Assembly: GCF_030013595.1 (NCBI RefSeq)
Contig: NZ_CP122768.1
Reading direction: 5' to 3' (one strand)
Source: Escherichia coli
GTDB taxonomy: Bacteria > Pseudomonadota > Gammaproteobacteria > Enterobacterales > Enterobacteriaceae
Length of the DNA: 64,000 nucleotides
Below the pieces are notes generated by a model that was given only the letters and a program-made list of their open reading frames with translations, searched no databases and had not been told where the DNA came from. The position numbers and the translations under genes are program-made. Positions 4,360-60,501 of this stretch are shown one piece after another. Position 1 is the first letter of the stretch, and every line of letters starts with the position of its first letter.

Positions 4360-7592
<3,233 letters not shown>

Positions 7593-10550: not shown

Positions 10551-11726
10551 TTACAGCTTGTTGTAAACACGCGCTAAACGGCCGTGGCCTTTGACAGTCA
10601 CCGGTGATTCGTTGGCGGCAATAAACGCTGATTCACCCGGTTTAAGCTGTAACTGCTGAGAACCTTTACACAGCGTTGCATCGCCTTCGACGCAGAACAA
10701 AATGGCGGCACTCTGCTGGCTGATGGTGGTTTCTTTATCACTAAGGTCATGCAGCGAGAAGGCAAAATCATCAACAGGAATCGGGAAGTCCAGTTCTGCA
10801 CCTTGTTTCACCGGCTGGGTCAACAACTGGTTAGCCGGTTTGGCTTCGAACTTCACATTGGTAACCAGTTCCGGAATATCAATGTATTTAGGCGTCAGAC
10901 CCGCACGCAGCACGTTATCGGAGTTAGCCATCACTTCCAGCGCCACGCCTTGCAGGTAAGCGTGCGGTGTTTCAGCGAACAGGAACATCGCTTCGCCCGG
11001 GTTCAATTTCACCACATTCAGCAATAGCGGGGAGAACAGACCGCTGTCTTCCGGGTAAAATTCAGAAATTAAACGAATCGTTTGCCACGGTTCACCCTGC
11101 TGGCTGTCGAGCGCCGATTTTAAAATCGCCAGCGCGCGGGATTTTTCTTCCCCCTGCATATTCAGCAGGCTGGCGAACAGTTCGCTTAAACGTTCGGCAT
11201 CAGGCTGTTGTAAAAAGTGAGCAATCGCCGGATGTGCACCTGCGACTGGCTGGAGTAGGGAAACAATCTCGGAAAATTCACGAAACGCATTCATCGCAAG
11301 GAAAGGCGTCAGCGCAAAAACCAGCTCCGGCTTGTGGTTAGGATCTTTATAGTTACGCTCGGCGGCATCCATCGGAATACCTGCGGCATTTTCTTTGGCA
11401 AAACCGATTTCAGAATTGCGTTTGTTTGGATGAACCTGAATGGAGAGCGGCTGTGCTGCGCATAATACTTTGAACAGGAAAGGCAGTTCGCCAAAGCGTT
11501 TGGCAACGGCCTCTCCGAGCAGAGTCGATTTATCACTCTCAATCACATCACGCAGTGAAACGATATCTCCGGCGGCATTCTGCACTCGTGAACTGCTTTT
11601 TGGATGTGCGCCCATCCACAGCTCGGCCATCGGCTGGCTGGACGGATTTTCCATACCATAAAGTTCAGTCAACGCCGTTTTGCTGCCCCAGGCATAGTTT
11701 TGCACTGAGTTAATGAGTTTTTGCAT
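10551..11726 (-). CDS. manA: mannose-6-phosphate isomerase
   Basis: Internal start MQKLINSVQNYAWGSKTALTELYGMENPSSQPMAELWMGAHPKSS gives 391 aa ManA; the track ORF begins at an upstream in-frame ATG. Confidence 0.9.
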   Translation of the reverse strand: MQKLINSVQNYAWGSKTALTELYGMENPSSQPMAELWMGAHPKSSSRVQNAAGDIVSLRDVIESDKSTLLGEAVAKRFGELPFLFKVLCAAQPLSIQVHPNKRNSEIGFAKENAAGIPMDAAERNYKDPNHKPELVFALTPFLAMNAFREFSEIVSLLQPVAGAHPAIAHFLQQPDAERLSELFASLLNMQGEEKSRALAILKSALDSQQGEPWQTIRLISEFYPEDSGLFSPLLLNVVKLNPGEAMFLFAETPHAYLQGVALEVMANSDNVLRAGLTPKYIDIPELVTNVKFEAKPANQLLTQPVKQGAELDFPIPVDDFAFSLHDLSDKETTISQQSAAILFCVEGDATLCKGSQQLQLKPGESAFIAANESPVTVKGHGRLARVYNKL

Positions 11727-39784: not shown

Positions 39785-40811
39785 TTATATTTTTTCGATC
39801 TCGACCAGATTAGTGTGCTGCGGGTTTCCCTTCGCCAGTGGTGAAGGGCGCAGAGTGGTTAGCGTATTCACACAGCCGCCATGGTCGATTTTATCGCCAG
39901 ACATATTGGCCTCGTGCCAGGCTCCCTGGCCCATAGCGCTAACCCCAGGGAGAATGCGTGGTGTTACTTTGGCTGGTAGCCGAACTTCGCCACGATGGTT
40001 AAACACCCGCACCATATCGCCGTTGGCAATCCCACGTTTCTGTGCATCTATAGGGTTGATCCACACCTCCTGACGGCAGGCTTCCTTCAGGACATCAATA
40101 TTGCCGTAGGTCGAGTGGGTACGGGATTTGTAATGGAAACCAAACAGTTGCAGTGGGAAGGTTCTACGTTCAGGGGAGTCCCAGCCTTCAAAGGTTGAGG
40201 CATAAACTGGCAGTGGGCTTATCACTTCATCTTTTTCCAGTTCCCAGGTACGGGCAATTTCCGCCAGCTTGCTGGAATAAATTTCAATCTTACCGGAAGG
40301 CGTTTTAAGTGGATTTGCCTCGGGGTCGTCACGAAATGCTTTGTAGGCGACAAAATGACCATTGGGATCTTTACGCTTATAGATACCCATTTTTTTCAGT
40401 TCGTCGTAAGACGGTAACGCCGGATCTTTGGCAAGCATTTTGGCGTACAGATGTTGTAACCATTGTTCCTGCGTGCGACCTTCTGTGAACTTTTGATAGA
40501 CGTCAGGTCCAAGACGTTTCGCGACTTCACTCAGGATCCAGTAAATCGGTTTGCGTTCGAATTTTTCGCTGGTGACTGGCTGAAGGAAAATGAGATATCC
40601 CATGTTACCTGCGTAGTCGTTAGGAATAATATCTTCCTGCTCAACGGTCATCAGGTCTGGCAGCAGAATGTCGGCATATTTTGCCGATGAGGTCATAAAG
40701 TTTTCGATGACCACAATCATTTCGCATTTCGATTCGTCCTGCAGAATTTCATGCGTTTTGTTGATGTCAGAATGCTGATTAACCAGGGTATTTCCCGCGT
40801 AGTTCCAGATG
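39785..40811 (-). pseudogene. ynfE: ynfE 3' fragment (codons from about IWNYAGNTL to the C-terminus), separated from its 5' part by a 9.4-kb insertion
   Basis: Translation aligns residue-by-residue with the C-terminal half of YnfF; homology begins exactly at the 11-bp repeat 40801-40811; the track ORF 39785..40951 is a chimera with insert-derived N-terminus. Confidence 0.85.
40801..40811 (+). repeat. left copy of 11-bp direct repeat AGTTCCAGATG (att core or target-site duplication)
   Basis: Identical 11-mer at 50242-50252; joining the flanks restores the in-frame ynfE sequence ...VPIKFIWNYAGNTL... Confidence 0.8.
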
Positions 40812-40876
40812 GACTCCACTGTCAGACGGATGGACGGACTTGAAGTAGTTGACTCAACGCTACTTAAGGTCCTGAT

Positions 40877-42485
40877 ATGACTGACATTAACTATGATAAT
40901 ACTGTATATCCATCCAGCTCTTTCTCTGGGTCTCCCTATCTGTATGGGCAAGTCTACACCTCAAGTCCTGACACAAGGCTGACACAAATCAATCTACTCA
41001 GCGTAGCTAAGCCTCAGTTAGTCCGTAGAGCCAATGGTCGATATACTATCCGCTTCAGACTCAAGGGACAGACCACACCGTTTCTTTCAGTATCGACCCG
41101 AAGCACAGACAGGAGAGTAGCCACAATGCGTCAGAGAGAGCTTGCAGCCACAGCTAAGGCCTTCATGTTGGATAGGCCTGAAGTCTCACTACAGGAGCTT
41201 ACAGAGCATCTCCGGTCTATGGCTGAGCAGTTCCTGACAGACGCTAGTGACGATTACTGGAATGGACTTGAGGTCGCTACTTTGGTGGACGAGAAGTCCA
41301 ACCTGAAGGAGCTAGCCGCTACGCAAGCCTTGAGTCTGGACCAGCAGAAGGGCATAAGGTTAGCGCTTGAAGTCCTGACCGCAGCACAGCAGAGGGTAGA
41401 TACTGGTGATACGTCCAGTCTAATCAAGCTGATTGGTGGTGGCGTAAGCCAGCTTACTGATGGAGATGACAATAACCTTACTAATAACTCAACTATATGC
41501 GACTCTACGTTGATTCTGAGGAACGAGCAGGGGGTCAGCCCGCAAGTATTCACGAGAGAGCGCCAACCATCTGTAGTTTTTTCAAGCCTAGTGTCCTCAC
41601 TGCTGGCTGAGAAGGTCCAGACCCTGAAGTCCTCCAGCTACAAGGACCTGTCGTCCTCACTGAATACCGTCTCTCGGTTTCTGCCTGAAGATATGGACCT
41701 GATGTCCCGCTCTGAGTGGCTGGCAGTGAGGGACGCTATGCTGGCTGCTGAGGTGAGACCATCGACAATCAACAAGCTGCTGACCAAAGCGAAGATGTGT
41801 CTCGATTATGGCCTGATGAATGGGCAACTTGAGGGCCGCAACCCTATTGAACGGATGAAGCTGACCAAGGATACCGACTCCAAGCGCAGAGCGTTCACAG
41901 ACGAGGAGCTGGAGAGACTTCTGGTCCGTGTTGAGGCTGAGTATCAGTTCACACGACACACGGCTCACACGACCTCTGAGGCCCGTAGATGGGCGTCTCT
42001 GGTGTCTGTGGTCACTGGCGCGAGGTCTGCTGAGGTCTGCCACCTGACTAAACGTGACGTTGTAACCTTGGACAATGGACTGGTCTGTATCGACATCAAT
42101 GAAGATGGGGACGGGAAGTCTGTGAAGAACAAACATTCAGTCCGACTTGTGCCGTTAACCGATGGGGCCTGTGGTTTCAGCCTGAAGTCCTTCCTCAAAT
42201 GGGTAGACACTCAGCCTGCTGATGGTCCCCTCTTTGGTATGACTCCGAGTGCCTACTCTAGTTGGTTTAACTCTAGGGTCCTGACTGAGGCCCTAGGAGA
42301 CGCTGAGAACGTTTCTCCACAGTCTGAGACATTGGCTGGCGACCCGAATGAAAGAGCGTGGAGTCAATCTGGTGGACGCTCAAGGCATCTTAGGTCACAG
42401 CAGTCAGTCCATTACGTATGACCTGTACGGGAAAGGACACGCTGTTGGTAGGCTGGCTGAGGTGCTGAAGACAGCTTTACTTTAA
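40877..42485 (+). pseudogene. tyrosine recombinase/integrase with apparent 1-nt frameshift upstream of box II
   Basis: ORF 40877-42421 contains box I (VVTGARSAEVCHLTKRDV) but ends out of frame; the HSLRHWLATRM...LGHSSQSITYDLYGKGH catalytic His-Arg-His-Tyr region is in another frame (42297-42485). True start is probably downstream of 40877, since arm-type repeats lie at 40968-40987. Confidence 0.6.
40968..40987 (+). repeat. two 11-bp-spaced direct repeats CTGACACAA (putative integrase arm-type sites, left arm)
   Basis: CTGACACAAGG and CTGACACAAAT in tandem; same motif recurs three times at the right end. Confidence 0.5.
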
Positions 42486-42562
42486 GTAGGAAGACCCAAG
42501 GTGGAGACCATATACGGCTTGATGGTTGAGACCTTGGGTCACTGAAGTCTGACTGAAGTTAG

Positions 42563-42603
42563 GGAGGGTGATAATAATCATAATCCCTCCTGACTATAGG
42601 CCC
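42563..42603 (+). promoter_or_regulatory. hairpin (GGAGGG-16 nt-CCCTCC) followed by T7-class promoter-like motif CTGACTATAGGCCC
   Basis: Direct reading of sequence; TATAGG core shared with motifs at 42801-43474. Confidence 0.35.
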
Positions 42604-42644
42604 ACTGGTTCGCCTTCGGCTGTCCGACTCTAAGTCTGTCTGTG

Positions 42645-42776
42645 GTCTTATTTAAACTGGTTCCCTAACTCAGGTCCTCCAACTTGGTGTCTTATTTAAA
42701 CTGGTTCCCTAACTCAGGTCCTCCAACTTGGTGTCTTATTTAAACTGGTTCCCTAACTCAGGCCCCTCCAAATTTC
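42645..42776 (+). repeat. three tandem copies of a 44-bp repeat (GTCTTATTTAAACTGGTTCCCTAACTCAGGTCCTCCAACTTGGT)
   Basis: Units start at 42645, 42689 and 42733; first two identical, third diverges in its last 14 nt. Confidence 0.85.
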
Positions 42777-42800
42777 GTTGTCTGTCAGCGACTTAAATAT

Positions 42801-42855
42801 CCCCTCACCTTAGAAGAGTTTAGGGTTCAGACCCTTAACTATCACCTTAGGAGAG
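42801..42855 (+). promoter_or_regulatory. pair of single-subunit phage RNAP promoter-like motifs (CCCCTCACCTTAGAAGAG and AACTATCACCTTAGGAGAG)
   Basis: Resemble SP6/T3-class promoters (…CACTATAGAAGAG / …CCCTCACTAAAGGGAGA); located just upstream of the 166-aa ORF. Confidence 0.35.
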
Positions 42856-42901
42856 ACGGGCCGTCCTCCACCCAATCAAAACCTTAAGAGGAGGACCATA
42901 C

Positions 42902-43402
42902 ATGGCTATTAAAATTCAGTGCTACACCGAGTCCGACAATGCGGCTTTCTTCGGTGACGATTCCGACCTCCAGCACCAGCTACCAGCACCGACATATGAC
43001 GAACCTAAGGCCCGCACAGGTAAGCCTCCTGTGGTCATCGACAACCGGGCTGTCCGTGCGTGGCTGATTGAGACTGGGTGTCTCTCCTATACGCAGCTTG
43101 TTGAGGCGTACCCGTGGGCTGACGATGTGTTCACAGGACTCTCACGGGCTACCAGTGGCGCTGTCGGTGCTGGACTCCCGGTATCTAAGGCGTACCTGTT
43201 CTCTGCCTTATATGGCACCAACGACATCTTCTCCCGTAACACAGCCAAATCCTACGCTGACATCACTGGGCGTTCACCGTCTCCTCGCTACCTGCGCCAC
43301 GTCAATAGCGTGCTTCAGGCTACGGCTGTGAATCTGGCTAAGGTTCTGAAGGACCGAGGGGATTTCACATGGTGGGATTACAACGATCAGTGCCTGTCCT
43401 GA
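42902..43402 (+). CDS. hypothetical protein (166 aa)
   Basis: ORF with GAGGAGG Shine-Dalgarno 8 nt upstream; no recognisable motifs. Confidence 0.55.
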   Translation: MAIKIQCYTESDNAAFFGDDSDLQHQLPAPTYDEPKARTGKPPVVIDNRAVRAWLIETGCLSYTQLVEAYPWADDVFTGLSRATSGAVGAGLPVSKAYLFSALYGTNDIFSRNTAKSYADITGRSPSPRYLRHVNSVLQATAVNLAKVLKDRGDFTWWDYNDQCLS

Positions 43403-43426
43403 GAGCCGCGCCAGCTCTGGGCTGGA

Positions 43427-43474
43427 ATACCCCCTCACTATAGGGACACCCCCTAAACTATCACTATAGGGGGG
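43427..43474 (+). promoter_or_regulatory. pair of T3/T7-class promoter-like motifs (CCCCCTCACTATAGGGACA and AACTATCACTATAGGGGGGA)
   Basis: First motif matches the T3 promoter core CCCTCACTAAAGGGA at 14 of 15 positions and the T7 core TCACTATAGGGA exactly; no RNAP gene in the element. Confidence 0.45.
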
Positions 43475-43620
43475 ACCAACCTTGCCTCTGCTTCTGATGC
43501 GTCAGAACACGCGAGGTCCTCCCGACATTAAGTATTCTCCTAAGTAATCAAGGCCCGTGACCGCCTCTGACAGACCTCCTGTATCGACCTCCAGCTCGTT
43601 AGCGTTCTTTAGTCGTCTCG

Positions 43621-43628
43621 GTTAGTAG
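43621..43628 (+). repeat. 8-bp target-site duplication GTTAGTAG (left) of IS66-family copy 1
   Basis: Identical octamer at 46329-46336 immediately outside the IS ends. Confidence 0.8.
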
Positions 43629-43712
43629 GTAACCGGCTCATTTAAACCGTCTGGTCTGTTTCCTCCGGCTCTACAAAAATAATGTCCATCATTTTTTAAT
43701 GGACACTATCGT

Positions 43713-44360
43713 ATGAAACACCGGACCTGGATCACTGAAGCTTTACGTCTTCACTTTGAAGAACATTTACCCCGGGTTGTGGCCGGGCGTCGCCTGGGTG
43801 TACCAAAATCAACAGTTTGTAGTATGTTCGTGCGCTTTCGGAGAGCTGGCCTTTCGTGGCCTTTGCCCGCAGGCATGTCGGAGCAGGAACTTGATGCCTG
43901 CCTTTACGGACAATTTTCCACGGTACCAGTCGTACGTCCTGAAAGCACCGTTATATCCGAAGCCCCCGTGGTAAAAAAACGTCCCCGGCGGCCCAACTTC
44001 CCTTATGAGTTTAAAATCGCCTTAGTGGAGCAGTCACTGCAGCCCGGAGCCTGTGTGGCGCAGATCGCCCGGGAAAACGGAATCAACGATAACCTGCTCT
44101 TCAACTGGCGCCATCAATACCGGAAAGGTGGCCTGCTGCCTTCCGGAAAAAATATGCCGGCACTGCTTCCCGTGACGTTAACGCCGGAGCCGGATAATAA
44201 AATCCCGGCCCCCGCACAGGAACCAGAGCAGATAAATACACCGTCCGACAGTCTGTGTTGTGAGCTGGTTCTGCCGGCCGGAACTCTCAGGCTTAAAGGT
44301 AAACTGACGCCGGCGTTATTACAGACACTTATCCGCGAAATAAAAGGGAGCAGCCACTGA
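43713..44360 (+). CDS. IS66-family accessory protein (orf1, HTH)
   Basis: 215 aa first ORF of the IS. Confidence 0.8.
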   Translation: MKHRTWITEALRLHFEEHLPRVVAGRRLGVPKSTVCSMFVRFRRAGLSWPLPAGMSEQELDACLYGQFSTVPVVRPESTVISEAPVVKKRPRRPNFPYEFKIALVEQSLQPGACVAQIARENGINDNLLFNWRHQYRKGGLLPSGKNMPALLPVTLTPEPDNKIPAPAQEPEQINTPSDSLCCELVLPAGTLRLKGKLTPALLQTLIREIKGSSH

Positions 44361-44707
44361 TGATATCTCTCCCTGCAGGTTCGCGTATCTGGCTGGTTGC
44401 AGGTATCACCGATATGCGAAATGGCTTTAACGGCCTGGCATCAAAAGTTCAGAACGTCCTGAAGGATGACCCGTTCTCCGGACACCTGTTCATCTTCCGC
44501 GGACGCCGGGGTGACCAGATAAAAGTGTTGTGGGCTGACAGTGACGGACTGTGCCTCTTCACCAAACGCCTGGAGCGGGGCCGCTTCGTCTGGCCAGTCA
44601 CCCGTGACGGCAAGGTGCACCTTACTCCGGCTCAGTTATCCATGCTTCTTGAAGGTATCAACTGGAAGCACCCGAAACGAACGGAACGCGCTGGAATCCG
44701 CATATAA
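44360..44707 (+). CDS. IS66-family Orf2 (TnpB-like)
   Basis: 115 aa MISLPAGSRIWLVAGITDMRNGFNGLA..., typical IS66 orf2; start overlaps orf1 stop. Confidence 0.85.
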   Translation: MISLPAGSRIWLVAGITDMRNGFNGLASKVQNVLKDDPFSGHLFIFRGRRGDQIKVLWADSDGLCLFTKRLERGRFVWPVTRDGKVHLTPAQLSMLLEGINWKHPKRTERAGIRI

Positions 44708-44726
44708 CCCGTTGTAAAGTGAGGAT

Positions 44727-46298
44727 ATGGACACCTCACTTGCTCATGAGAACGCCCGCCTGCGGGCACTGTTGCAGACGCAACAGGACACCATCCGCCA
44801 GATGGCTGAATACAACCGCCTGCTCTCACAGCGGGTGGCGGCTTATGCTTCCGAAATCAACCGGCTGAAGGCGCTGGTTGCGAAACTGCAACGTATGCAG
44901 TTCGGTAAAAGCTCAGAAAAACTTCGTGCAAAAACCGAACGGCAGATACAGGAAGCACAGGAGCGAATCAGCGCACTTCAGGAAGAAATGGCGGAAACGC
45001 TGGGTGAGCAATATGACCCGGTACTGCCATCCGCCCTGCGCCAGTCTTCAGCCCGTAAACCGTTACCGGCCTCACTTCCCCGTGAAACCCGGGTTATCCG
45101 GCCGGAAGAGGAATGCTGTCCTGCCTGTGGTGGTGAACTCAGTTCTCTGGGATGTGATGTGTCAGAGCAACTGGAGCTTATCAGCAGCGCCTTTAAGGTT
45201 ATCGAAACACAACGTCCGAAACAGGCCTGTTGCCGGTGCGACCATATCGTACAGGCACCAGTACCTTCAAAACCCATTGCACGCAGTTATGCCGGAGCGG
45301 GGCTTCTGGCCCATGTTGTCACCGGGAAATATGCAGACCATCTGCCGTTATACCGCCAGTCAGAAATATACCGTCGTCAGGGAGTGGAGCTGAGCCGTGC
45401 CACACTGGGGCGCTGGACAGGTGCTGTTGCTGAACTGCTGGAGCCGCTGTATGACGTCCTGCGCCAGTATGTGCTGATGCCCGGTAAAGTCCATGCTGAT
45501 GATATCCCCGTCCCGGTCCAGGAGCCGGGCAGCGGTAAAACCCGGACAGCCCGGCTGTGGGTCTACGTCCGTGATGACCGTAACGCCGGTTCACAGATGC
45601 CCCCGGCGGTCTGGTTCGCGTACAGTCCGGACCGGAAAGGTATCCATCCACAAAATCACCTGGCCGGTTACAGCGGTGTGCTTCAGGCCGATGCTTACGG
45701 TGGTTACCGGGCGTTATACGAATCCGGCAGAATAACGGAAGCCGCGTGTATGGCTCATGCCCGGAGAAAAATCCACGATGTGCATGCAAGAGCGCCCACC
45801 TACATCACCACGGAAGCCCTGCAGCGTATCGGTGAACTGTATGCCATCGAGGCAGAGGTCCGGGGCTGTTCAGCAGAACAGCGTCTGGCGGCAAGAAAAG
45901 CCAGAGCCGCGCCACTGATGCAGTCACTGTATGACTGGATACAGCAACAGATGAAAACACTGTCGCGTCACTCAGATACGGCAAAAGCGTTCGCATACCT
46001 GCTGAAACAGTGGGATGCACTGAACGTGTACTGCAGTAATGGCTGGGTGGAAATCGACAACAACATCGCAGAGAACGCCTTACGGGGAGTGGCCGTAGGC
46101 CGGAAAAACTGGATGTTCGCGGGTTCCGACAGCGGTGGTGAACATGCGGCGGTGTTGTACTCGCTGATCGGCACATGCCGTCTGAACAATGTGGAGCCAG
46201 AAAAGTGGCTGCGTTACGTCATTGAACATATCCAGGACTGGCCGGCAAACCGGGTACGCGATCTGTTGCCCTGGAAAGTTGATCTGAGCTCTCAGTAA
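44727..46298 (+). CDS. IS66-family transposase (orf3)
   Basis: 523 aa with N-terminal leucine-zipper-like region, CxxC...CxxC zinc finger and DDE region. Confidence 0.85.
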
Positions 46299-46328
46299 AT
46301 ATCAATACGGTTCTGACGAGTCGCTTAC

Positions 46329-46336
46329 GTTAGTAG
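46329..46336 (+). repeat. 8-bp target-site duplication GTTAGTAG (right) of IS66-family copy 1
   Basis: Matches 43621-43628. Confidence 0.8.
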
Positions 46337-46582
46337 CTCGTCTACTCACTACATTGGCTTAAGTCTATCACCGCTCACCATCTGGAGTCCTTACAGCTCG
46401 TCCTGACATGCGGTCTCACCTTATATGCACATGGAGAACATGGCCACTCCAGACCAACACTAATCAACATTAACCCTATTCACTTTCGTTAAGCATTTTT
46501 TGGTGGGTCCGTTTGGATGCATTGAATAGGTGCGGACTCCACGTGGAGACAGAAAGTGCTTTACTAAAGGAGCATCCTTTAT

Positions 46583-46972
46583 ATGACTATTAAATCCATC
46601 GTTATCAACGGTAAGACCATCCTGTCTACACCTAACGCCATCAATGAGGGTGTCTGGTTCGACATGCTTGAGGTCCATCAAGCTGCTGGCTTGCCTGCTA
46701 ACAAGACGTTCTCACAGTGGCGCAGCCGACAGTCTCGTGCATTAGAAGAGGCTGGAGAGGTGTCGTTTGACAGTGTACAGAAGACCCTGTGTGGCAGCTT
46801 TGTGGCAGTGCTGGCCTACCTTATGTGGGCGGACCTTACTCTCTGGCTGGCGGTGGTTCGTTACGTTGCGTCTGAGACTATCGGCGTCCTGCCTGACCGC
46901 TTCAAGTCTATCGACGGTGATAACCCCGAGTTAGAAATGTCAGAGGATAACAGCGAGTGGGAGGACTTCTAA
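46583..46972 (+). CDS. KilA-N domain protein (129 aa)
   Basis: N-terminal pattern (INGKTI...NEGVWFDMLEV...GLPANKTFSQW) and hydrophobic WxxxLxxxL segment typical of KilA-N/APSES DNA-binding domains. Confidence 0.5.
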   Translation: MTIKSIVINGKTILSTPNAINEGVWFDMLEVHQAAGLPANKTFSQWRSRQSRALEEAGEVSFDSVQKTLCGSFVAVLAYLMWADLTLWLAVVRYVASETIGVLPDRFKSIDGDNPELEMSEDNSEWEDF

Positions 46973-46973
46973 G

Positions 46974-47714
46974 ATGACCATGAGCCAGCTTGAAGCATTA
47001 CCTATCGTCATCGAGGGTCATTCATTCATCTGCAACGACCAGCGCATGTGGAACCTGAACGAGATTCACCGAGTGTTAGGTCTTCCAGCAAGCAAGATGC
47101 CGTCTGAGTGGAATAACAAGATTCGCACACAACTTGACCGCTCCGGAAATTTCCGGACCGTGAATGGTGACGGCGGTGGTACATGGGCGACCGAGGCTGG
47201 GACCGTGGCTTATGCTATGTGGGTCTCTACAGATTTCTACCTGATGGTCATCAATGCTTTCATCTTTATGCGTAACGACGCAATCGTCCGAGAGCGTGTA
47301 GCGGTCAAACAGGCTGACGAGGCTAACGCTAACCTCTCCATCGCAGCACCTAAGGCAGACATCTTTGACGGTCGTCTGACCAATGGTGGCTCTGTTCCGT
47401 GGAACTGGGCGTGTAAATCTTTGGGTCTTGCCCCGATGAAACTGAAAGAGGGCTTGAAGCGCTCCGGTAAGTTCGTCCAGAAGTGGAACCCTGACAGTTA
47501 CGCCGACGAGCTTCGACCTCAGGAGAAGGCGTTCAGTATTGGACTATTCGTCACTAAGTCAGTCATGGGTAAAGACACATGGCAGGTGACAGCTAAAGGC
47601 TACGCATGGATGCAGGGGAACGCCCAGAAGTGGAGAGAGCTAATAGCTGATGGTGACCGCTTAAAGGCTGCTGAGCGTCGAGCACAGAAGCGTCTTAACC
47701 GTGGAGGTAAGTAG
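46974..47714 (+). CDS. KilA-N domain protein with C-terminal extension (246 aa)
   Basis: Paralogous to upstream ORF (IEGHSFICNDQRMWNLNEIHRVLGLPASKMPSEW... GTWATEAGTVAYAMWVSTDFYLMV). Confidence 0.5.
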   Translation: MTMSQLEALPIVIEGHSFICNDQRMWNLNEIHRVLGLPASKMPSEWNNKIRTQLDRSGNFRTVNGDGGGTWATEAGTVAYAMWVSTDFYLMVINAFIFMRNDAIVRERVAVKQADEANANLSIAAPKADIFDGRLTNGGSVPWNWACKSLGLAPMKLKEGLKRSGKFVQKWNPDSYADELRPQEKAFSIGLFVTKSVMGKDTWQVTAKGYAWMQGNAQKWRELIADGDRLKAAERRAQKRLNRGGK

Positions 47715-47716
47715 TC

Positions 47717-47941
47717 ATGGCTATGATTGACCCTCGTACACCTATCGGCAAAGCGACCCTTCGTTACCGTGGTCTGCCTACACGTCATCTGCTGTCCCTG
47801 CTGAGACTTGGAGTCGAAGACCCCGAACGCCCGTACTACAGTCGAGACGAGCTAATAGCTATGTTGGTGGACCGTGATTTAGACAATCAGTTACGCCGAG
47901 CCTTTGCGAAGTCTAGCGCAGCTAGGGAACTGGAGTCCTGA
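47717..47941 (+). CDS. hypothetical protein (74 aa)
   Basis: ORF tightly coupled to upstream gene (3-nt gap). Confidence 0.4.
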   Translation: MAMIDPRTPIGKATLRYRGLPTRHLLSLLRLGVEDPERPYYSRDELIAMLVDRDLDNQLRRAFAKSSAARELES

Positions 47942-48146
47942 ACCTTATGGGGCAGAAAAACCGCCGCATAAACCTATCGTCTGCTGACCGAAGTTTCGAC
48001 GCATTGAGCCAGACGGAAAAGTTTTCCTGCTGGTAAACCACCTTAATTTAAACACCTTTTGAGAATGACCGATGCGGGGAGACCCGTAGGCATAACTGTG
48101 TCTGCGATACCGATAGTTCTCACCTTCTCAATAGGAGTACTACCTT

Positions 48147-48638
48147 ATGTTATTCAACAACAACGACTGGAAACTATCAGTCACCGACATCAATCCCTAT
48201 GAAAATACTGTGAGTCTGGACGGTCAGTCCTATCCGCTGTCTCTGGCGATTAAGACCCTGATTCCGGGCTACCTGTCAGGCTTACCGTCCACCAGCCGCG
48301 AGGCGATGGAGTTACTGGAAGCTCTGGCTGAAGCTGGCGTGTCCATTGGCAACTTCTTCAGTAATGACCTGATGACCGCCTATGGTCGCCGCCAGCAGAA
48401 CAAGCGAGCCGAAGCTGAGCGTATTGCTAAAGAGCAGCGCATTCAGGCTGAGCGTATGCGTGAAGAGAACATGACTGATGCAGAGTGGCAGAAAGAGCTA
48501 CAGCGCCGTGAACAGGTCAAAGCTGAACGCCGGACCTATGGTGAGCACCTCCGCAGTGCTACCCATTCCGCTGGGCGCTCCCGTGCTTCTATGGTCGCTG
48601 ACATTGAGTCCACGGACAACTGGATGGACAGCCTCTAA
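48147..48638 (+). CDS. hypothetical coiled-coil protein (163 aa)
   Basis: C-terminal half highly charged and heptad-like (RRQQNKRAEAERIAKEQRIQAERMREENMTDAEWQKELQRREQVKAERR). Confidence 0.5.
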   Translation: MLFNNNDWKLSVTDINPYENTVSLDGQSYPLSLAIKTLIPGYLSGLPSTSREAMELLEALAEAGVSIGNFFSNDLMTAYGRRQQNKRAEAERIAKEQRIQAERMREENMTDAEWQKELQRREQVKAERRTYGEHLRSATHSAGRSRASMVADIESTDNWMDSL

Positions 48639-48704
48639 GACACAGACACACAAGTGGTCCTGACCTGATGTCGGGACCCACAGTATCCAAACTAATTTAG
48701 GAGA

Positions 48705-49700
48705 TTGATTATTATGACGATTAAAGACGCTTTCCAGTTCGGCATTGAGCCAGTACGTATCAGCGACACCGACAACATTCAGATTAACGAAGGTTTGCCA
48801 ACTAACGCAGACCCGCAGGTCTATGCCCTCCAGTTAGCTAAGACGGTTAAGGCTATGCTGAACGGTGTACTTAAAGACGCTCAAGAGAACATCCCGTTCC
48901 CTGTAGAAGTCCTGCCGACCCGCAATAGCCTGCCTACTCCAATCATTGCTCACACTCTGGCTGATCGCTCTGTGGTCGTTCCTGTCCGTGGTGGTAAGCG
49001 ACCTGAAGTCGTGACCGTTCCGTCTGGACAAGAAATCGTGGTCGAACCAATCGAGCAGGCTATTCTCATCTCTGAGCAGACCAAGCTCTGGGACGCCAAG
49101 TCATCCACCGGATTCACTCAGGGCACACTTCAGCAGGACGCTATGAACATCTGTGAGAATGTGGTCCGTACCATCAACGCTCGCATGGTCGACGTTCTGG
49201 AGTCCTCCAAACTGTTGAAGACCGTAGAGCTGCCAGTCCTGACTGGAAGCCTGACCACTAAGGCAGACGCTATCATGGACGCTCTGTTTGAGAACACCGA
49301 GTCCTCTTTCGGCTCTGAAGTGTCTGATTACGGCATCATCGCCCATGAGTCCCAACTGAAAGCGCTGTCCCGTCTGGCAGCTAAACAGGGCTTCTCTGGT
49401 GGAGACGCTATCGTGGATATGCTGGGTACCGACATCGCCTATTACAACGGTGAAGACAAGGGTGTATTCATGCTGGCTAAACGCTTCACGGCCCTGAGCT
49501 TCGGCTGCTTCCGTCACGACGGTGAGAATATTACGGTCGTCCTTTCACGTGATGGCGACTCTCAGTCCCACGACTTGGAAATCCTCGGTAAAGTGTTCGT
49601 TGTCGCTGAAGCTGCTACGACCATCAAGATGGGCACTGGCTCAGCTACTGCCGTCCTGCCTGTAGTCAAACGCCTGAAGTTCACCAAGACCGAAGCGTAA
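48705..49700 (+). CDS. hypothetical protein (331 aa), possible structural/morphogenetic protein
   Basis: Largest non-integrase ORF of the element; follows the coiled-coil ORF; AGGAG Shine-Dalgarno upstream; no motif I can assign. Confidence 0.5.
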   Translation: MIIMTIKDAFQFGIEPVRISDTDNIQINEGLPTNADPQVYALQLAKTVKAMLNGVLKDAQENIPFPVEVLPTRNSLPTPIIAHTLADRSVVVPVRGGKRPEVVTVPSGQEIVVEPIEQAILISEQTKLWDAKSSTGFTQGTLQQDAMNICENVVRTINARMVDVLESSKLLKTVELPVLTGSLTTKADAIMDALFENTESSFGSEVSDYGIIAHESQLKALSRLAAKQGFSGGDAIVDMLGTDIAYYNGEDKGVFMLAKRFTALSFGCFRHDGENITVVLSRDGDSQSHDLEILGKVFVVAEAATTIKMGTGSATAVLPVVKRLKFTKTEA

Positions 49701-49844
49701 GACCAATGGGTAAGAGGTAAGTCTGGACTGAATATCAGCAGGACTTCAGGTGGTGGCCTGTCACTGTGATTAACTAACTACGGTCTGGACCAATGGTCTG
49801 GGCCTTATTACTGGTATGGTAGTATACAGGCGAAGGAGGACCCA

Positions 49845-50000
49845 ATGTCTATGACTTCCGCAGACCTAAGGTCCCTCCTGACTCTGGTCTATAAACTCGT
49901 GTTCCTCTCTGTGGGTCTCTACATGGTTCTCTCTGGTCGACTCGGTGTGGATGTGTTCGACACTCTGTCTAAGGCTGTGGGTGGACTTCTAGGTCCTTAG
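49845..50000 (+). CDS. small single-pass membrane protein (51 aa)
   Basis: ATG with AGGAGGA Shine-Dalgarno; MSMTSADLRSLLTLVYKLVFLSVGLYMVLSGRLGVDVFDTLSKAVGGLLGP; below ORF-track cutoff. Confidence 0.4.
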   Translation: MSMTSADLRSLLTLVYKLVFLSVGLYMVLSGRLGVDVFDTLSKAVGGLLGP

Positions 50001-50153
50001 GTTTGGACTCACAGTGGGACCGATGATTTCTGACAGAAAAATGTGAATGACCATCTAATACATTAAGCCAGCAGACTTCCCCCCATAGTCCCGCCTCAAG
50101 TCCAGACCGAGGCCACCGGGGGTCCTGACCAGCCGTCTAGACATCCCGTCTAA

Positions 50154-50186
50154 TGACACAAGTCTGGCACAAAGCCTGACACAAAG
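50154..50186 (+). repeat. three 11-bp-spaced direct repeats TGACACAAG / TGGCACAAAG / TGACACAAAG (putative arm-type sites, right arm)
   Basis: Same motif and orientation as 40968-40987 at the opposite end of the element. Confidence 0.5.
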
Positions 50187-50241
50187 TCCTTGACTCAATG
50201 CAGGACCTCAGGCCTACTAAGGGTCCGCTTCAAGTCCTTGA

Positions 50242-50252
50242 AGTTCCAGATG
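50242..50252 (+). repeat. right copy of 11-bp direct repeat AGTTCCAGATG
   Basis: Identical to 40801-40811. Confidence 0.8.
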
Positions 50253-57801: not shown

Positions 57802-57831
57802 GTAAGCGACTCGTCAGAACCGTATTGATAT

Positions 57832-59403
57832 TTACTGAGAGCTCAGATCAACTTTCCAGGGCAACAGATCGCGTACCCGGTTTGCCGGCCAGTCCTGGAT
57901 ATGTTCAATGACGTAACGCAGCCACTTTTCTGGCTCCACATTGTTCAGACGGCATGTGCCGATCAGCGAGTACAACACCGCCGCATGTTCACCACCGCTG
58001 TCGGAACCCGCGAACATCCAGTTTTTCCGGCCTACGGCCACTCCCCGTAAGGCGTTCTCTGCGATGTTGTTGTCGATTTCCACCCAGCCATTACTGCAGT
58101 ACACGTTCAGTGCATCCCACTGTTTCAGCAGGTATGCGAACGCTTTTGCCGTATCTGAGTGACGCGACAGTGTTTTCATCTGTTGCTGTATCCAGTCATA
58201 CAGTGACTGCATCAGTGGCGCGGCTCTGGCTTTTCTTGCCGCCAGACGCTGTTCTGCTGAACAGCCCCGGACCTCTGCCTCGATGGCATACAGTTCACCG
58301 ATACGCTGCAGGGCTTCCGTGGTGATGTAGGTGGGCGCTCTTGCATGCACATCGTGGATTTTTCTCCGGGCATGAGCCATACACGCGGCTTCCGTTATTC
58401 TGCCGGATTCGTATAACGCCCGGTAACCACCGTAAGCATCGGCCTGAAGCACACCGCTGTAACCGGCCAGGTGATTTTGTGGATGGATACCTTTCCGGTC
58501 CGGACTGTACGCGAACCAGACCGCCGGGGGCATCTGTGAACCGGCGTTACGGTCATCACGGACGTAGACCCACAGCCGGGCTGTCCGGGTTTTACCGCTG
58601 CCCGGCTCCTGGACCGGGACGGGGATATCATCAGCATGGACTTTACCGGGCATCAGCACATACTGGCGCAGGACGTCATACAGCGGCTCCAGCAGTTCAG
58701 CAACAGCACCTGTCCAGCGCCCCAGTGTGGCACGGCTCAGCTCCACTCCCTGACGACGGTATATTTCTGACTGGCGGTATAACGGCAGATGGTCTGCATA
58801 TTTCCCGGTGACAACATGGGCCAGAAGCCCCGCTCCGGCATAACTGCGTGCAATGGGTTTTGAAGGTACTGGTGCCTGTACGATATGGTCGCACCGGCAA
58901 CAGGCCTGTTTCGGACGTTGTGTTTCGATAACCTTAAAGGCGCTGCTGATAAGCTCCAGTTGCTCTGACACATCACATCCCAGAGAACTGAGTTCACCAC
59001 CACAGGCAGGACAGCATTCCTCTTCCGGCCGGATAACCCGGGTTTCACGGGGAAGTGAGGCCGGTAACGGTTTACGGGCTGAAGACTGGCGCAGGGCGGA
59101 TGGCAGTACCGGGTCATATTGCTCACCCAGCGTTTCCGCCATTTCTTCCTGAAGTGCGCTGATTCGCTCCTGTGCTTCCTGTATCTGCCGTTCGGTTTTT
59201 GCACGAAGTTTTTCTGAGCTTTTACCGAACTGCATACGTTGCAGTTTCGCAACCAGCGCCTTCAGCCGGTTGATTTCGGAAGCATAAGCCGCCACCCGCT
59301 GTGAGAGCAGGCGGTTGTATTCAGCCATCTGGCGGATGGTGTCCTGTTGCGTCTGCAACAGTGCCCGCAGGCGGGCGTTCTCATGAGCAAGTGAGGTGTC
59401 CAT
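57832..59403 (-). CDS. IS66-family transposase (orf3)
   Basis: 523 aa product identical to 44727-46298. Confidence 0.85.
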
Positions 59404-59422
59404 ATCCTCACTTTACAACGGG

Positions 59423-59770
59423 TTATATGCGGATTCCAGCGCGTTCCGTTCGTTTCGGGTGCTTCCAGTTGATACCTTCAAGAAGCATGGATAACTGAGC
59501 CGGAGTAAGGTGCACCTTGCCGTCACGGGTGACTGGCCAGACGAAGCGGCCCCGCTCCAGGCGTTTGGTGAAGAGGCACAGTCCGTCACTGTCAGCCCAC
59601 AACACTTTTATCTGGTCACCCCGGCGTCCGCGGAAGATGAACAGGTGTCCGGAGAACGGGTCATCCTTCAGGACGTTCTGAACTTTTGATGCCAGGCCGT
59701 TAAAGCCATTTCGCATATCGGTGATACCTGCAACCAGCCAGATACGCGAACCTGCAGGGAGAGATATCAT
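59423..59770 (-). CDS. IS66-family Orf2 (TnpB-like)
   Basis: 115 aa identical to copy 1. Confidence 0.85.
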   Translation of the reverse strand: MISLPAGSRIWLVAGITDMRNGFNGLASKVQNVLKDDPFSGHLFIFRGRRGDQIKVLWADSDGLCLFTKRLERGRFVWPVTRDGKVHLTPAQLSMLLEGINWKHPKRTERAGIRI

Positions 59771-60417
59771 CAGTGGCTGCTCCCTTTTATTTCGCGGATA
59801 AGTGTCTGTAATAACGCCGGCGTCAGTTTACCTTTAAGCCTGAGAGTTCCGGCCGGCAGAACCAGCTCACAACACAGACTGTCGGACGGTGTATTTATCT
59901 GCTCTGGTTCCTGTGCGGGGGCCGGGATTTTATTATCCGGCTCCGGCGTTAACGTCACGGGAAGCAGTGCCGGCATATTTTTTCCGGAAGGCAGCAGGCC
60001 ACCTTTCCGGTATTGATGGCGCCAGTTGAAGAGCAGGTTATCGTTGATTCCGTTTTCCCGGGCGATCTGCGCCACACAGGCTCCGGGCTGCAGTGACTGC
60101 TCCACTAAGGCGATTTTAAACTCATAAGGGAAGTTGGGCCGCCGGGGACGTTTTTTTACCACGGGGGCTTCGGATATAACGGTGCTTTCAGGACGTACGA
60201 CTGGTACCGTGGAAAATTGTCCGTAAAGGCAGGCATCAAGTTCCTGCTCCGACATGCCTGCGGGCAAAGGCCACGAAAGGCCAGCTCTCCGAAAGCGCAC
60301 GAACATACTACAAACTGTTGATTTTGGTACACCCAGGCGACGCCCGGCCACAACCCGGGGTAAATGTTCTTCAAAGTGAAGACGTAAAGCTTCAGTGATC
60401 CAGGTCCGGTGTTTCAT
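59770..60417 (-). CDS. IS66-family accessory protein (orf1)
   Basis: 215 aa identical to copy 1. Confidence 0.8.
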   Translation of the reverse strand: MKHRTWITEALRLHFEEHLPRVVAGRRLGVPKSTVCSMFVRFRRAGLSWPLPAGMSEQELDACLYGQFSTVPVVRPESTVISEAPVVKKRPRRPNFPYEFKIALVEQSLQPGACVAQIARENGINDNLLFNWRHQYRKGGLLPSGKNMPALLPVTLTPEPDNKIPAPAQEPEQINTPSDSLCCELVLPAGTLRLKGKLTPALLQTLIREIKGSSH

Positions 60418-60501
60418 ACGATAGTGTCCATTAAAAAATGATGGACATTATTTTTGTAGAGCCGGAGGAAACAGACCAGACGGTTTAAATGAGCCGGTTA
60501 C

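Follow-up and report, generated by a model that had tools for sequence, protein, structure and literature searches.

An insertion in Escherichia coli ynfE is probably a degraded member of a capsid-encoding mini-satellite family of virulent T7-like phages

The insertion in ynfE and its genes

We analyzed 64,000 nucleotides of Escherichia coli DNA (contig NZ_CP122768.1, assembly GCF_030013595.1), called the window below, in which the minus-strand gene ynfE is split by an integrated element of 9,430 bp (40812-50241). The element lies between two perfect copies of the 11-bp direct repeat AGTTCCAGATG (Table 1). The C-terminal part of ynfE ends at 40811 and the N-terminal part begins at 50242. An initial annotation of the window had described this interruption and its repeats correctly; the break, which it had put at about codon 465, lies near codon 470. 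It had also proposed a comparison with genomes that keep ynfE intact. The site was uninterrupted in 5,116 of 5,426 complete E. coli genomes. Moreover, the two flanks (300 bp each), joined through a single repeat copy, gave 600 bp that were 100% identical to intact ynfE of other strains. The insertion is therefore precise and site-specific.

The element has itself been interrupted. A 2.7-kb segment with tnpA, tnpB, tnpC and an 8-bp target duplication is an IS66-family (ISCro1-like) insertion foreign to the native unit. Without it, the unit measures 6,722 bp, or 6,733 bp with one repeat copy, close to the 6.7 kb estimated in the initial annotation. A second ISCro1-like copy lies at 57802-60501 on the - strand. 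It is 100% identical over 2,700 bp to the copy in the element, which suggests recent transposition in the strain.

All genes of the element lie on the + strand, as first annotated. The tyrosine integrase reported at one end stands (ORF, open reading frame, 40877-42421; PHROG integrase family, E 6e-24), yet in this copy it is a pseudogene. The 2-bp deletion takes away the HxxR...H...Y catalytic residues. Intact integrases were found at two related loci, L001 and L147 (527 aa in L147). The two tandem KilA-N proteins were also confirmed: the 246-aa protein carries both KilA-N and ANT/KilAC domains, and the 129-aa protein is its paralogue (28% identity, E 5e-9). The accessory slot occupied here by orf166 holds an unrelated 122-aa gene in other copies. 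At the right end, a 163-aa protein, the 331-aa protein and a small hydrophobic ORF follow one another in the order first annotated.

Searches with PHROGs, NCBIfam and Pfam matched no family of RNA polymerase, DNA polymerase, primase, portal, terminase, protease, connector or tail protein to any ORF of the element. This agrees with the initial annotation, which had seen no replication, terminase, portal, tail or RNA polymerase gene. For orf166, orf129, orf74, orf163 and orf51, searches with PADLOC, NCBIfam and Pfam yielded no function. The 163-aa protein had no significant family match, and tblastn of orf163 and orf166 against GenBank phages returned nothing. When the proteins were compared with phage PE3-1 and about 120 pieces of T7-like contigs, the only similarity was to gp7.3, in some copies of the element. 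Rfam showed no RNA family, and a hairpin 3′ of the capsid gene is only a weak terminator candidate. The 163-aa protein, encoded directly upstream of the capsid gene, is a candidate scaffolding or size-determining protein. A role of the small core protein in directing excision is a guess.

Repeats occur at both ends, as first annotated, and are probably arm-type sites of the integrase; part of the right-end region resembles a phage terminal repeat instead (see below). The GACACAAGGCTGACACAAA-type repeat is kept in L004, which has the same integrase clade and another helper type. The 44-bp tandem repeat seen in the initial annotation is present in three copies, with fewer in L001. Repeat arrays adjoin the terminal repeats of T7-like phages, and the 44-bp units could be an array of this kind or candidate iterons. 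No sequence similarity to the arrays of T7-like phages was found.

The window copy is decayed and probably immobile, since its integrase is frameshifted, the IS66 copy separates the main promoter from the late genes and the gp7.3-like gene is deleted. The ORFs of the capsid protein and the 163-aa protein are intact.

Table 1. Coordinates of the element, its borders and its signals in the window
Feature	Position	Strand	Remarks
attL core, left copy of AGTTCCAGATG	40801..40811		11-bp repeat
Tyrosine integrase, pseudogene	40877..42485	+	2-bp deletion near 42317
Putative pause/end-of-repeat mimic CCCTATCTGTA	40934..40944	+	Within integrase ORF; class II RNA polymerase pause/termination signal
Left GACACAAGGCTGACACAAA repeats	40962..40988	+	Probably integrase arm-type sites
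28-bp hairpin GGAGGGTGATAATAATCATAATCCCTCC	42563..42590	+	27/28 identical to PE3-1 positions 70-97
Three tandem 44-bp repeats	42645..42776	+	Between hairpin and first promoter
Weaker Kayfunavirus-type promoter CCTTAACTATCACCTTAGGAGAG	42833..42855	+	19.2 bits; upstream of orf166
orf166, variable accessory gene	42902..43402	+	No homologue found
Second promoter-like site AATACCCCCTCACTATAGGGACA	43426..43448	+	18/23 matches to T3; 26 bp upstream of the CCTAAACTATCACTATAGGGGGG site
Strong Kayfunavirus-type promoter CCTAAACTATCACTATAGGGGGG	43452..43474	+	29.5 bits, best in window; +1 at 43469
IS66-family (ISCro1-like) insertion	43629..46328	+	2,700 bp; target duplication GTTAGTAG; foreign to native element
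orf129, KilA-N-like paralogue of next gene	46583..46972	+	129 aa
KilA-N + ANT/KilAC DNA-binding protein (antirepressor-like)	46974..47714	+	246 aa; domain matches
Small core protein (orf74)	47717..47941	+	74 aa (55-74 aa in family); motif DPRTP.G..TLRYRG
163-aa charged protein (orf163)	48147..48638	+	Core gene directly upstream of capsid gene
HK97-fold major capsid protein (predicted)	48705..49700	+	331 aa; true start probably ATG at 48714
gp7.3-like gene remnant	49706..49766	+	MGKR* ... GKSGLNISRTSGGGLSL*
51-aa hydrophobic protein (orf51)	49845..50000	+	80% identical in L142; also in L147
Putative mimic of helper genome-end processing site and terminal-repeat start	50037..50146	+	GAAAAATGTGAATGACCATCT|AATAC...CCCCCCATAG...AAGTCCAGACC
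Right repeats GACACAAG(G/T)CTG(A/G)CACAAA	50147..50185	+	Probably integrase arm-type sites
attR core, right copy of AGTTCCAGATG	50242..50252		11-bp repeat

The capsid gene and the family that carries it

None of the proteins other than the integrase had been recognized in the initial annotation. This no longer holds for the 331-aa protein, which structure prediction identifies as an HK97-fold shell or major capsid protein. It belongs to no Pfam, PHROG or NCBIfam family. A profile search of its family against PDB sequences returned nothing, and tblastn found no match in 50,697 GenBank phage records. A HMMER search of 1.84 billion representative proteins gave 63 relatives, down to 24% identity. 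With close homologues only, the AlphaFold model was poor (pLDDT 48). With 34 relatives as alignment, pLDDT rose to 84.7; it was the remote homologues that made the model usable. In Foldseek searches of viral structures, the top matches were throughout phage capsid proteins (E 1e-11 to 1e-8). The protein is under strong purifying selection (dN/dS 0.07-0.14 at dS 0.7-3.4). In some RefSeq genomes it is named "peptidase M16 family protein", and in one the 163-aa protein is named "toprim domain-containing protein"; both names look wrong (the genomes are among H55, H57, H65 and H83).

An HK97 fold could also belong to an encapsulin-like nanocompartment, or to a shell operon like that of a gene-transfer agent, carried on an ordinary island unrelated to T7-like phages. 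The predicted fold agrees with this, but no recognizable cargo enzyme gene was seen among the ORFs, and the genetic context is phage-specific. Such a shell would also leave unexplained the phage-polymerase promoters, the junction mimics and the gp7.3 homologue described below. Host sigma-70-like promoters, moreover, are not enriched (4 found, 6.1 expected). We consider this the least probable of the readings discussed here.

Directly after the capsid gene, three members of the family encode a protein of 79-80 aa: L142 (5844-6086), L147 (11002-11241) and L148 (2712-2948). The product is 40-42% identical over its full length to gp7.3 of PE3-1, a Kayfunavirus (K1F-like) coliphage. gp7.3 is a virion protein of the T7 group, and the homologue would thus link the element to the T7-like virion. 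The link comes from a PHROG match and pairwise BLAST; tblastn of the L142 protein against GenBank phages gave no match. In the window and in L001, only a start stub and the C-terminal 17 codons of this gene are kept.

The element was first described as unrecognized. It is neither rare nor unseen: the module of the 163-aa and capsid genes is present in 309 of the 5,426 RefSeq complete E. coli genomes (about 5.7%), at 76-100% DNA identity. In these genomes, the module is annotated as hypothetical proteins only, or is misnamed. The core genes are those for the integrase, a KilA-N or Rha-type DNA-binding protein, a small protein, a protein of about 160 aa and the capsid protein. Together the copies form a family of undescribed integrative elements of Enterobacterales, of roughly 6.4-6.7 kb.

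An intact reference copy is provided by L147. Its genes encode the integrase, the 122-aa accessory product, a KilA-N protein of 252 aa, a small protein of 55 aa, the 163-aa protein, a capsid protein of 328 aa, a gp7.3-like protein of 79 aa and a 51-aa protein. Of the non-coding signals, it carries the hairpin, the pause motif and the genome-end mimic, together with a promoter that scores 35.5 bits.

Three or more attachment sites are in use in the family. Besides ynfE, members occupy the 3′ end of a tRNA-Gly gene beside the ETT2 locus (L126 and L127; repeat TCCCTTCGCCCGCTCCA) and a third site (L142; repeat TAGTTCAGATTGAAC). Their integrases fall into two clades, about 30% identical to each other. 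In all elements with the second-clade integrase, the integrase stop is overlapped by a gene for a DUF4145 protein (PHROG 1305, "DNA binding protein", E 1e-27), at 6331-6990 in L126, 2645-3304 in L127, 6815-7474 in L002 and 5991-6620 in L144. This protein could be an integrase partner or defence cargo.

The 161-aa KilA-N-like proteins (o161) of L126 (7808-8293) and L004 (8218-8703) are 98% identical, whereas the capsid proteins of these two loci are 45% identical, and their integrase clades and promoter classes differ. This indicates recent exchange of modules, and the elements are mosaic. Remote capsid relatives (33-35%) are found in the same layout in other Enterobacterales (L143 and L144). 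A Rouxiella genome (L002) also carries a capsid relative. On this chromosome, of Rouxiella sp. S1S-2, an attP-type junction (right arm, core, left arm) lies to the right of the element at 11553-11660. It is followed by about 104 bp of left-arm sequence, the scar of a tandem or earlier insertion.

Promoters and genome-end signals

The motif TCACTATAGG occurs twice exactly in the element, at 43435 and 43461, 26 bp apart. A scan of IMG/VR with AACTATCACTATAGG returned contigs of 39-40 kb with about 8-10 copies each, all on one strand. These contigs are Kayfunavirus coliphages such as PE3-1, and the consensus of nine PE3-1 promoters is (A/C)CT(A/T)AACTATCACTATAGG(G/A). We built a weight matrix from these nine promoters and scanned both strands of the window at a cut-off of at least 10 bits. 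Only four sites were found, all of them within the element and on the + strand. The best, CCTAAACTATCACTATAGGGGGG, agrees with the phage consensus from -17 to +3. The promoter-like motifs of the T3/T7 single-subunit RNA polymerase class, which had been noticed in the initial annotation, thus match the Kayfunavirus consensus.

The AATACCCCCTCACTATAGGGACA site, upstream of the strong promoter, may serve a second type of helper. A similar tandem of a AATACCCCCTCACTATAGGGACA-like and a Kayfunavirus-type site is seen in L126 (AATAAACCCTCACTATAGGGGGG). Among IMG/VR phages, none has AACCCTCACTATAGGG, the L126 variant of this T3-like class, as its main promoter (the window has CCCCCTCACTATAGGG), and the site was left unassigned.

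Scans of other family members also showed helper-type promoters, whose class changes with the helper genus. Elements with a capsid protein 76-98% identical to that of the window (L001, L002, L126, L127 and L147) have Kayfunavirus-type sites of 30-37 bits, compared with 32-37 bits for the phage's own promoters. L004 and L005 (44% capsid identity) have no Kayfunavirus-type site. Instead, they match 23/23 positions of AAGGAAGGTACACTATAGGGAGA, the phi9/phi10 promoter of Citrobacter phage CR8 (Caroctavirus). L144 (33%) carries AATTACGACTCACTATAGGGAGAG, a T7-type promoter. L143 (35%) has three copies of a fourth class, (A/G)TAAACCCCGACTATAGAGAG, for which no phage genus was matched. Because the promoter class co-varies with the helper genus, we argue that these promoters are an adaptation to helpers and not a relic.

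Further sites were seen in two of these loci. The fourth-class sites of L143, at 6746, 6782 and 10458, have the form (A/G)TAAACCCCGACT(A/T)TAG(A/G). In L004, sites at 4383, 7454 and 7529 with the form (GAGA/TAA)CC(C)ACACTATAG(A/G)(A/G) lie beside the perfect CR8-type promoter, and these three may be promoters for yet another helper.

Besides promoters, the element appears from sequence comparison to copy three non-coding signals of the helper concatemer junction: the genome-end site, the CCCTATCTGT end-of-repeat/RNA polymerase pause signal and a 28-bp hairpin. The region of PE3-1 that matches the hairpin is non-coding and lies between the rightmost phage promoter (phiOR) and gene 19.5. Copies of the hairpin were found in 144 phage records. 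Of these, 25 were inspected, all of them T7-like, and where an inspected record starts at the genome end, the match is near the right genome end.

The right end of the element (50078-50180) and the terminal-repeat region of PE3-1 (562-662) were reciprocal best matches in a search of the whole PE3-1 genome and the whole window. The score was 43, compared with a background of 20.5 +/- 3.2 and 28 for the next best unrelated match. For L126, an element at the tRNA-Gly site, the match runs across the precise point at which the phage terminal repeat begins. The genome-end cut sites of T7, PE3-1 and CR8 share a motif of about 55 nt, AAAA(A/G)T.TGAG....ATCT(A/C)A.A...(C)CCCCATAG. The same motif is present in five elements, those of the window (once, at 50037), L126, L141, L143 and L144. 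L144, which has T7-type promoters, matches T7's own junction at 30/38 positions.

The terminal repeat of PE3-1 ends in TCTCTATCTGTA and that of T7 in CCCTATCTGTT. The motif C(C/T)CTATCTGT(A/T), which consists of a T7-like terminal-repeat end (...CCCT) followed by ATCTGT(T/A), occurs exactly once per element at nine of nine loci, always on the + strand near the left end. No other copy was found in 213 kb on both strands (0.2 per strand expected). In T7, ATCTGTT at the concatemer junction serves as the class II termination signal for the phage RNA polymerase (10.1101/2021.01.11.426313). L144 has ATCTGTT, as T7 does, and 7/8 other loci examined (the window, L001, L002, L004, L126 and L142, to which L127, L147 and L149 were added) have ATCTGTA, as PE3-1 does; L143 has two candidate sites, one with each ending. 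The motif falls within the integrase ORF and is read in different frames among the elements, which argues that it is kept as DNA and not as protein.

While the element is integrated, its right end holds the genome-end site and its left end the pause site. Only in an excised circle or a concatemer do the two sites face each other in phage order and enclose a repeat-like segment of about 325 bp with the attP core. Since the attachment core lies between the two sites, the junction is complete only after excision.

These signals could also be leftovers of a decayed temperate T7-like prophage, in which promoters, junction sequences and capsid gene would not be adaptations at all. T7-like promoters, a terminal-repeat-like sequence, a gp7.3 homologue and an integrase are all present, as such a remnant would have them. 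Temperate T7-like phages such as LUZ100 have been reported (PMC10134795). However, 309 E. coli genomes and also other genera have the same set of genes, packed into about 6.5 kb and found with integrases of two clades. No fragments of RNA polymerase, DNA polymerase, portal, terminase or tail genes were found in the element. The capsid protein has no sequence match in GenBank phages and is under strong purifying selection, and the promoter class differs among homologous elements, matching different phage genera. We therefore regard a prophage remnant as very improbable.

A proposed satellite and its comparison with known systems

We interpret the insertion as probably a degraded member of a family of capsid-encoding mini-satellites of virulent T7-like phages (Autographiviridae, Studiervirinae), with the window copy apparently adapted to helpers of the Kayfunavirus (K1F-like) type. 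The initial annotation had already suggested a satellite of a T7-like phage. This idea is supported here by the promoters and their co-variation with helper genus, the missing RNA polymerase gene and the junction mimics. The precise insertion, the predicted capsid fold, the other missing functions and the purifying selection point the same way. With somewhat more caution, we favor the broader reading that these are new and widespread capsid-encoding satellites of about 6.5 kb and the first that parasitize virulent T7-like phages. They would use helper RNA polymerase promoters as an infection switch and a junction mimic split by the attachment site, and their lineages would be tuned to different helper genera.

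We infer a cycle of induction, excision on infection, replication, packaging and transfer, as well as the capsid size and any cost to the helper. The element would lie silent in the chromosome, its genes showing no enrichment of host-type promoters. An infecting helper would make its single-subunit RNA polymerase, which would fire the helper-type promoters of the element. These would drive the accessory gene and then the genes of the KilA-N regulator(s) and of the small core, 163-aa, capsid, gp7.3-like and 51-aa proteins. The tyrosine integrase would circularize the element, joining its ends and rebuilding a phage-like concatemer junction in the order genome-end site, terminal-repeat-like segment of about 325 bp with the attP core, and CCCT|ATCTGTA.

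The helper replisome, primed by transcription from these promoters, would replicate the element, in which no replication gene was matched. Helper terminase would then process the mimicked junction, with predicted cuts at the start TCTAATAC (window 50054) and at the end ...CCCT (window 40937). The DNA would enter heads that are built from the HK97-fold capsid protein of the element itself, the 163-aa protein probably serving as scaffold, and the helper portal, core and tail would complete the particle. The heads would presumably be small, fitting a linear genome of about 7 kb.

Several points weigh against this interpretation. The case for a satellite comes from sequence comparison, and the window copy is degraded. 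The cycle names no trigger for excision in an infected cell. The capsid protein is no closer to the capsid proteins of T7-like phages than to other HK97-fold proteins; as no portal gene was matched either, that the protein assembles on a foreign portal is assumed. A role of the 163-aa protein as scaffold is weak, as it is drawn only from gene position and composition. Apart from the promoter, the CR8 terminal repeat has nothing similar at the ends of L004, and the end mimic was not reproduced in that lineage. In elements of the tRNA-Gly type, the pause motif is reached about 640 bp into the integrase gene, which would make the repeat equivalent much longer than in phages. The predicted attP junctions, both the ynfE type (CAAGTCCTTGA-AGTTCCAGATG-GACTCCA) and the tRNA-Gly type, were absent from JGI metagenome contigs. 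IMG/VR held three relatives of the capsid protein, all from isolate genomes and none from viromes.

Stand-alone Logan contigs of 6.4-6.8 kb were considered as circles and rejected, as assembly-graph branching or long repeats explain them.

The failure to find a packaged or excised form in JGI metagenome contigs or IMG/VR would fit a phage-triggered defence island. There, the helper-type promoters would act as an infection sensor, and the capsid-like protein, the 163-aa protein and the junction mimics would poison or titrate head assembly, terminase or RNA polymerase of T7-like phages. Such an island would spread by ordinary horizontal transfer only. The tie of expression to a phage RNA polymerase, the lack of any matched portal or terminase gene, the variable accessory slots and the DUF4145 gene beside the integrase in many members are all compatible with it. 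On the other hand, PADLOC gave no strong match; the only one below E 0.001 was of the KilA-N protein to PDC-S22 (E 2e-4, about 40 residues). Without packaging, it is difficult to see why the junction should be complete in the excised circle only. In addition, a gp7.3-like virion protein is encoded in three members examined (L142, L147 and L148), and both the integrase and exact attachment sites have been kept in different genera and at three or more loci. A defence island is thus the unlikely but most serious alternative to a satellite, and the two behaviors could coexist.

Among virulent coliphages, the T7-like ones have been studied best, and both phage therapy and biotechnology make wide use of them. 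A satellite of these phages would fill a gap in this classic model. Members are present in about 6% of E. coli genomes and could influence host range, gene transfer and the yield of T7-like phages used in therapy. Matching of promoters to helpers could predict which phage genus preys on a given strain. The satellite reading also opens the questions of how a foreign HK97-fold capsid sits on a T7-type portal, how capsid size is set and how T7-type genome ends are recognized. Literature searches with incomplete full-text coverage brought up neither this element nor any satellite of T7-like phages, and novelty is unproven.

Like known satellites, the element has an integrase module (intact in L001 and L147, a pseudogene in the window), an 11-bp repeat with an exact empty site, a small native unit (6.7 kb) and no functions for autonomous virion production. 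An Autographiviridae prophage would have a single-subunit RNA polymerase and T7-like replication and virion genes, a set that the element lacks. The proposed arrangement had been called different from P4, PICI, cf-PICI and PLE satellites. This was upheld: the defining gene sets of P4, PICI and cf-PICI were not matched, and there is no sequence relationship to PLE. We class the element as probably a new family within the phage satellites. If the interpretation is true, it would be among the smallest satellites that encode a capsid.

Helper capsids are remodeled by P4, PICI and PLE, each of which brings a primase or replication initiator of its own. P4-like satellites resemble the element as integrase-bearing satellites of E. 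coli, and they end in small capsids, as the element presumably would. P4 has its own primase/helicase, resizes the P2 capsid with Sid and is activated by transcriptional cross-talk with a temperate helper. PHROG and NCBIfam scans matched none of the P4-like genes Psu, Delta, Sid, Epsilon and Alpha (primase) in the element. Likewise, PHROGs, NCBIfam and Pfam showed none of the classical PICI genes (master repressor, AlpA, primase or replication initiator with origin, terS or capsid-morphogenesis genes). A satellite switched on directly by the helper RNA polymerase needs no repressor, which is a different control logic.

Like the proposed satellite, PLE of Vibrio cholerae exploits a strictly virulent phage. 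Only infection activates it, and it has to escape from a host chromosome that the phage degrades. PLE does not use promoters of single-subunit RNA polymerases. It is reported to be about 18 kb long, to have its own replication initiator and to remodel the ICP1 coat protein with TcaP (PMC10945586). PICMI (phage-inducible chromosomal minimalist islands) of Vibrionaceae are, like the proposed satellite, very small satellites of virulent phages with minimal gene content. They lie beside fis, have their own excision and replication core and no capsid genes, and are packaged as concatemers in helper-size heads (PMC10803314). In contrast, the element uses ynfE, tRNA-Gly and other sites, has a capsid gene and T7-type promoters, and showed no match to a primase or replication gene. 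Integration next to fis and a core of AlpA and primase, which mark PICMI, were not found in it.

For the capsid gene, the parallel is with cf-PICIs such as EcCI2. On our interpretation, both are integrative satellites of Enterobacterales with their own HK97-fold capsid and no remodeling of the helper capsid. cf-PICIs are reported to be larger, also to encode portal, protease, connectors and terminase, and to steal only tails (10.1101/2022.09.08.507074). The element has its own capsid gene, whereas no family of portal, prohead protease, connector or terminase was matched, and it is too small for such a set. Unlike a cf-PICI, it would depend on helper RNA polymerase promoters and mimic helper genome ends.

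The cis-requirements that the element appears to mimic are the same as those of laboratory T7 transducing plasmids, which carry a T7 origin and a concatemer junction (Chung and Hinkle 1990). It is classical work that makes these cis-requirements plausible. Those plasmids are artificial, whereas the element is natural and integrating, with a capsid gene of its own and a junction that is split by the attachment site.

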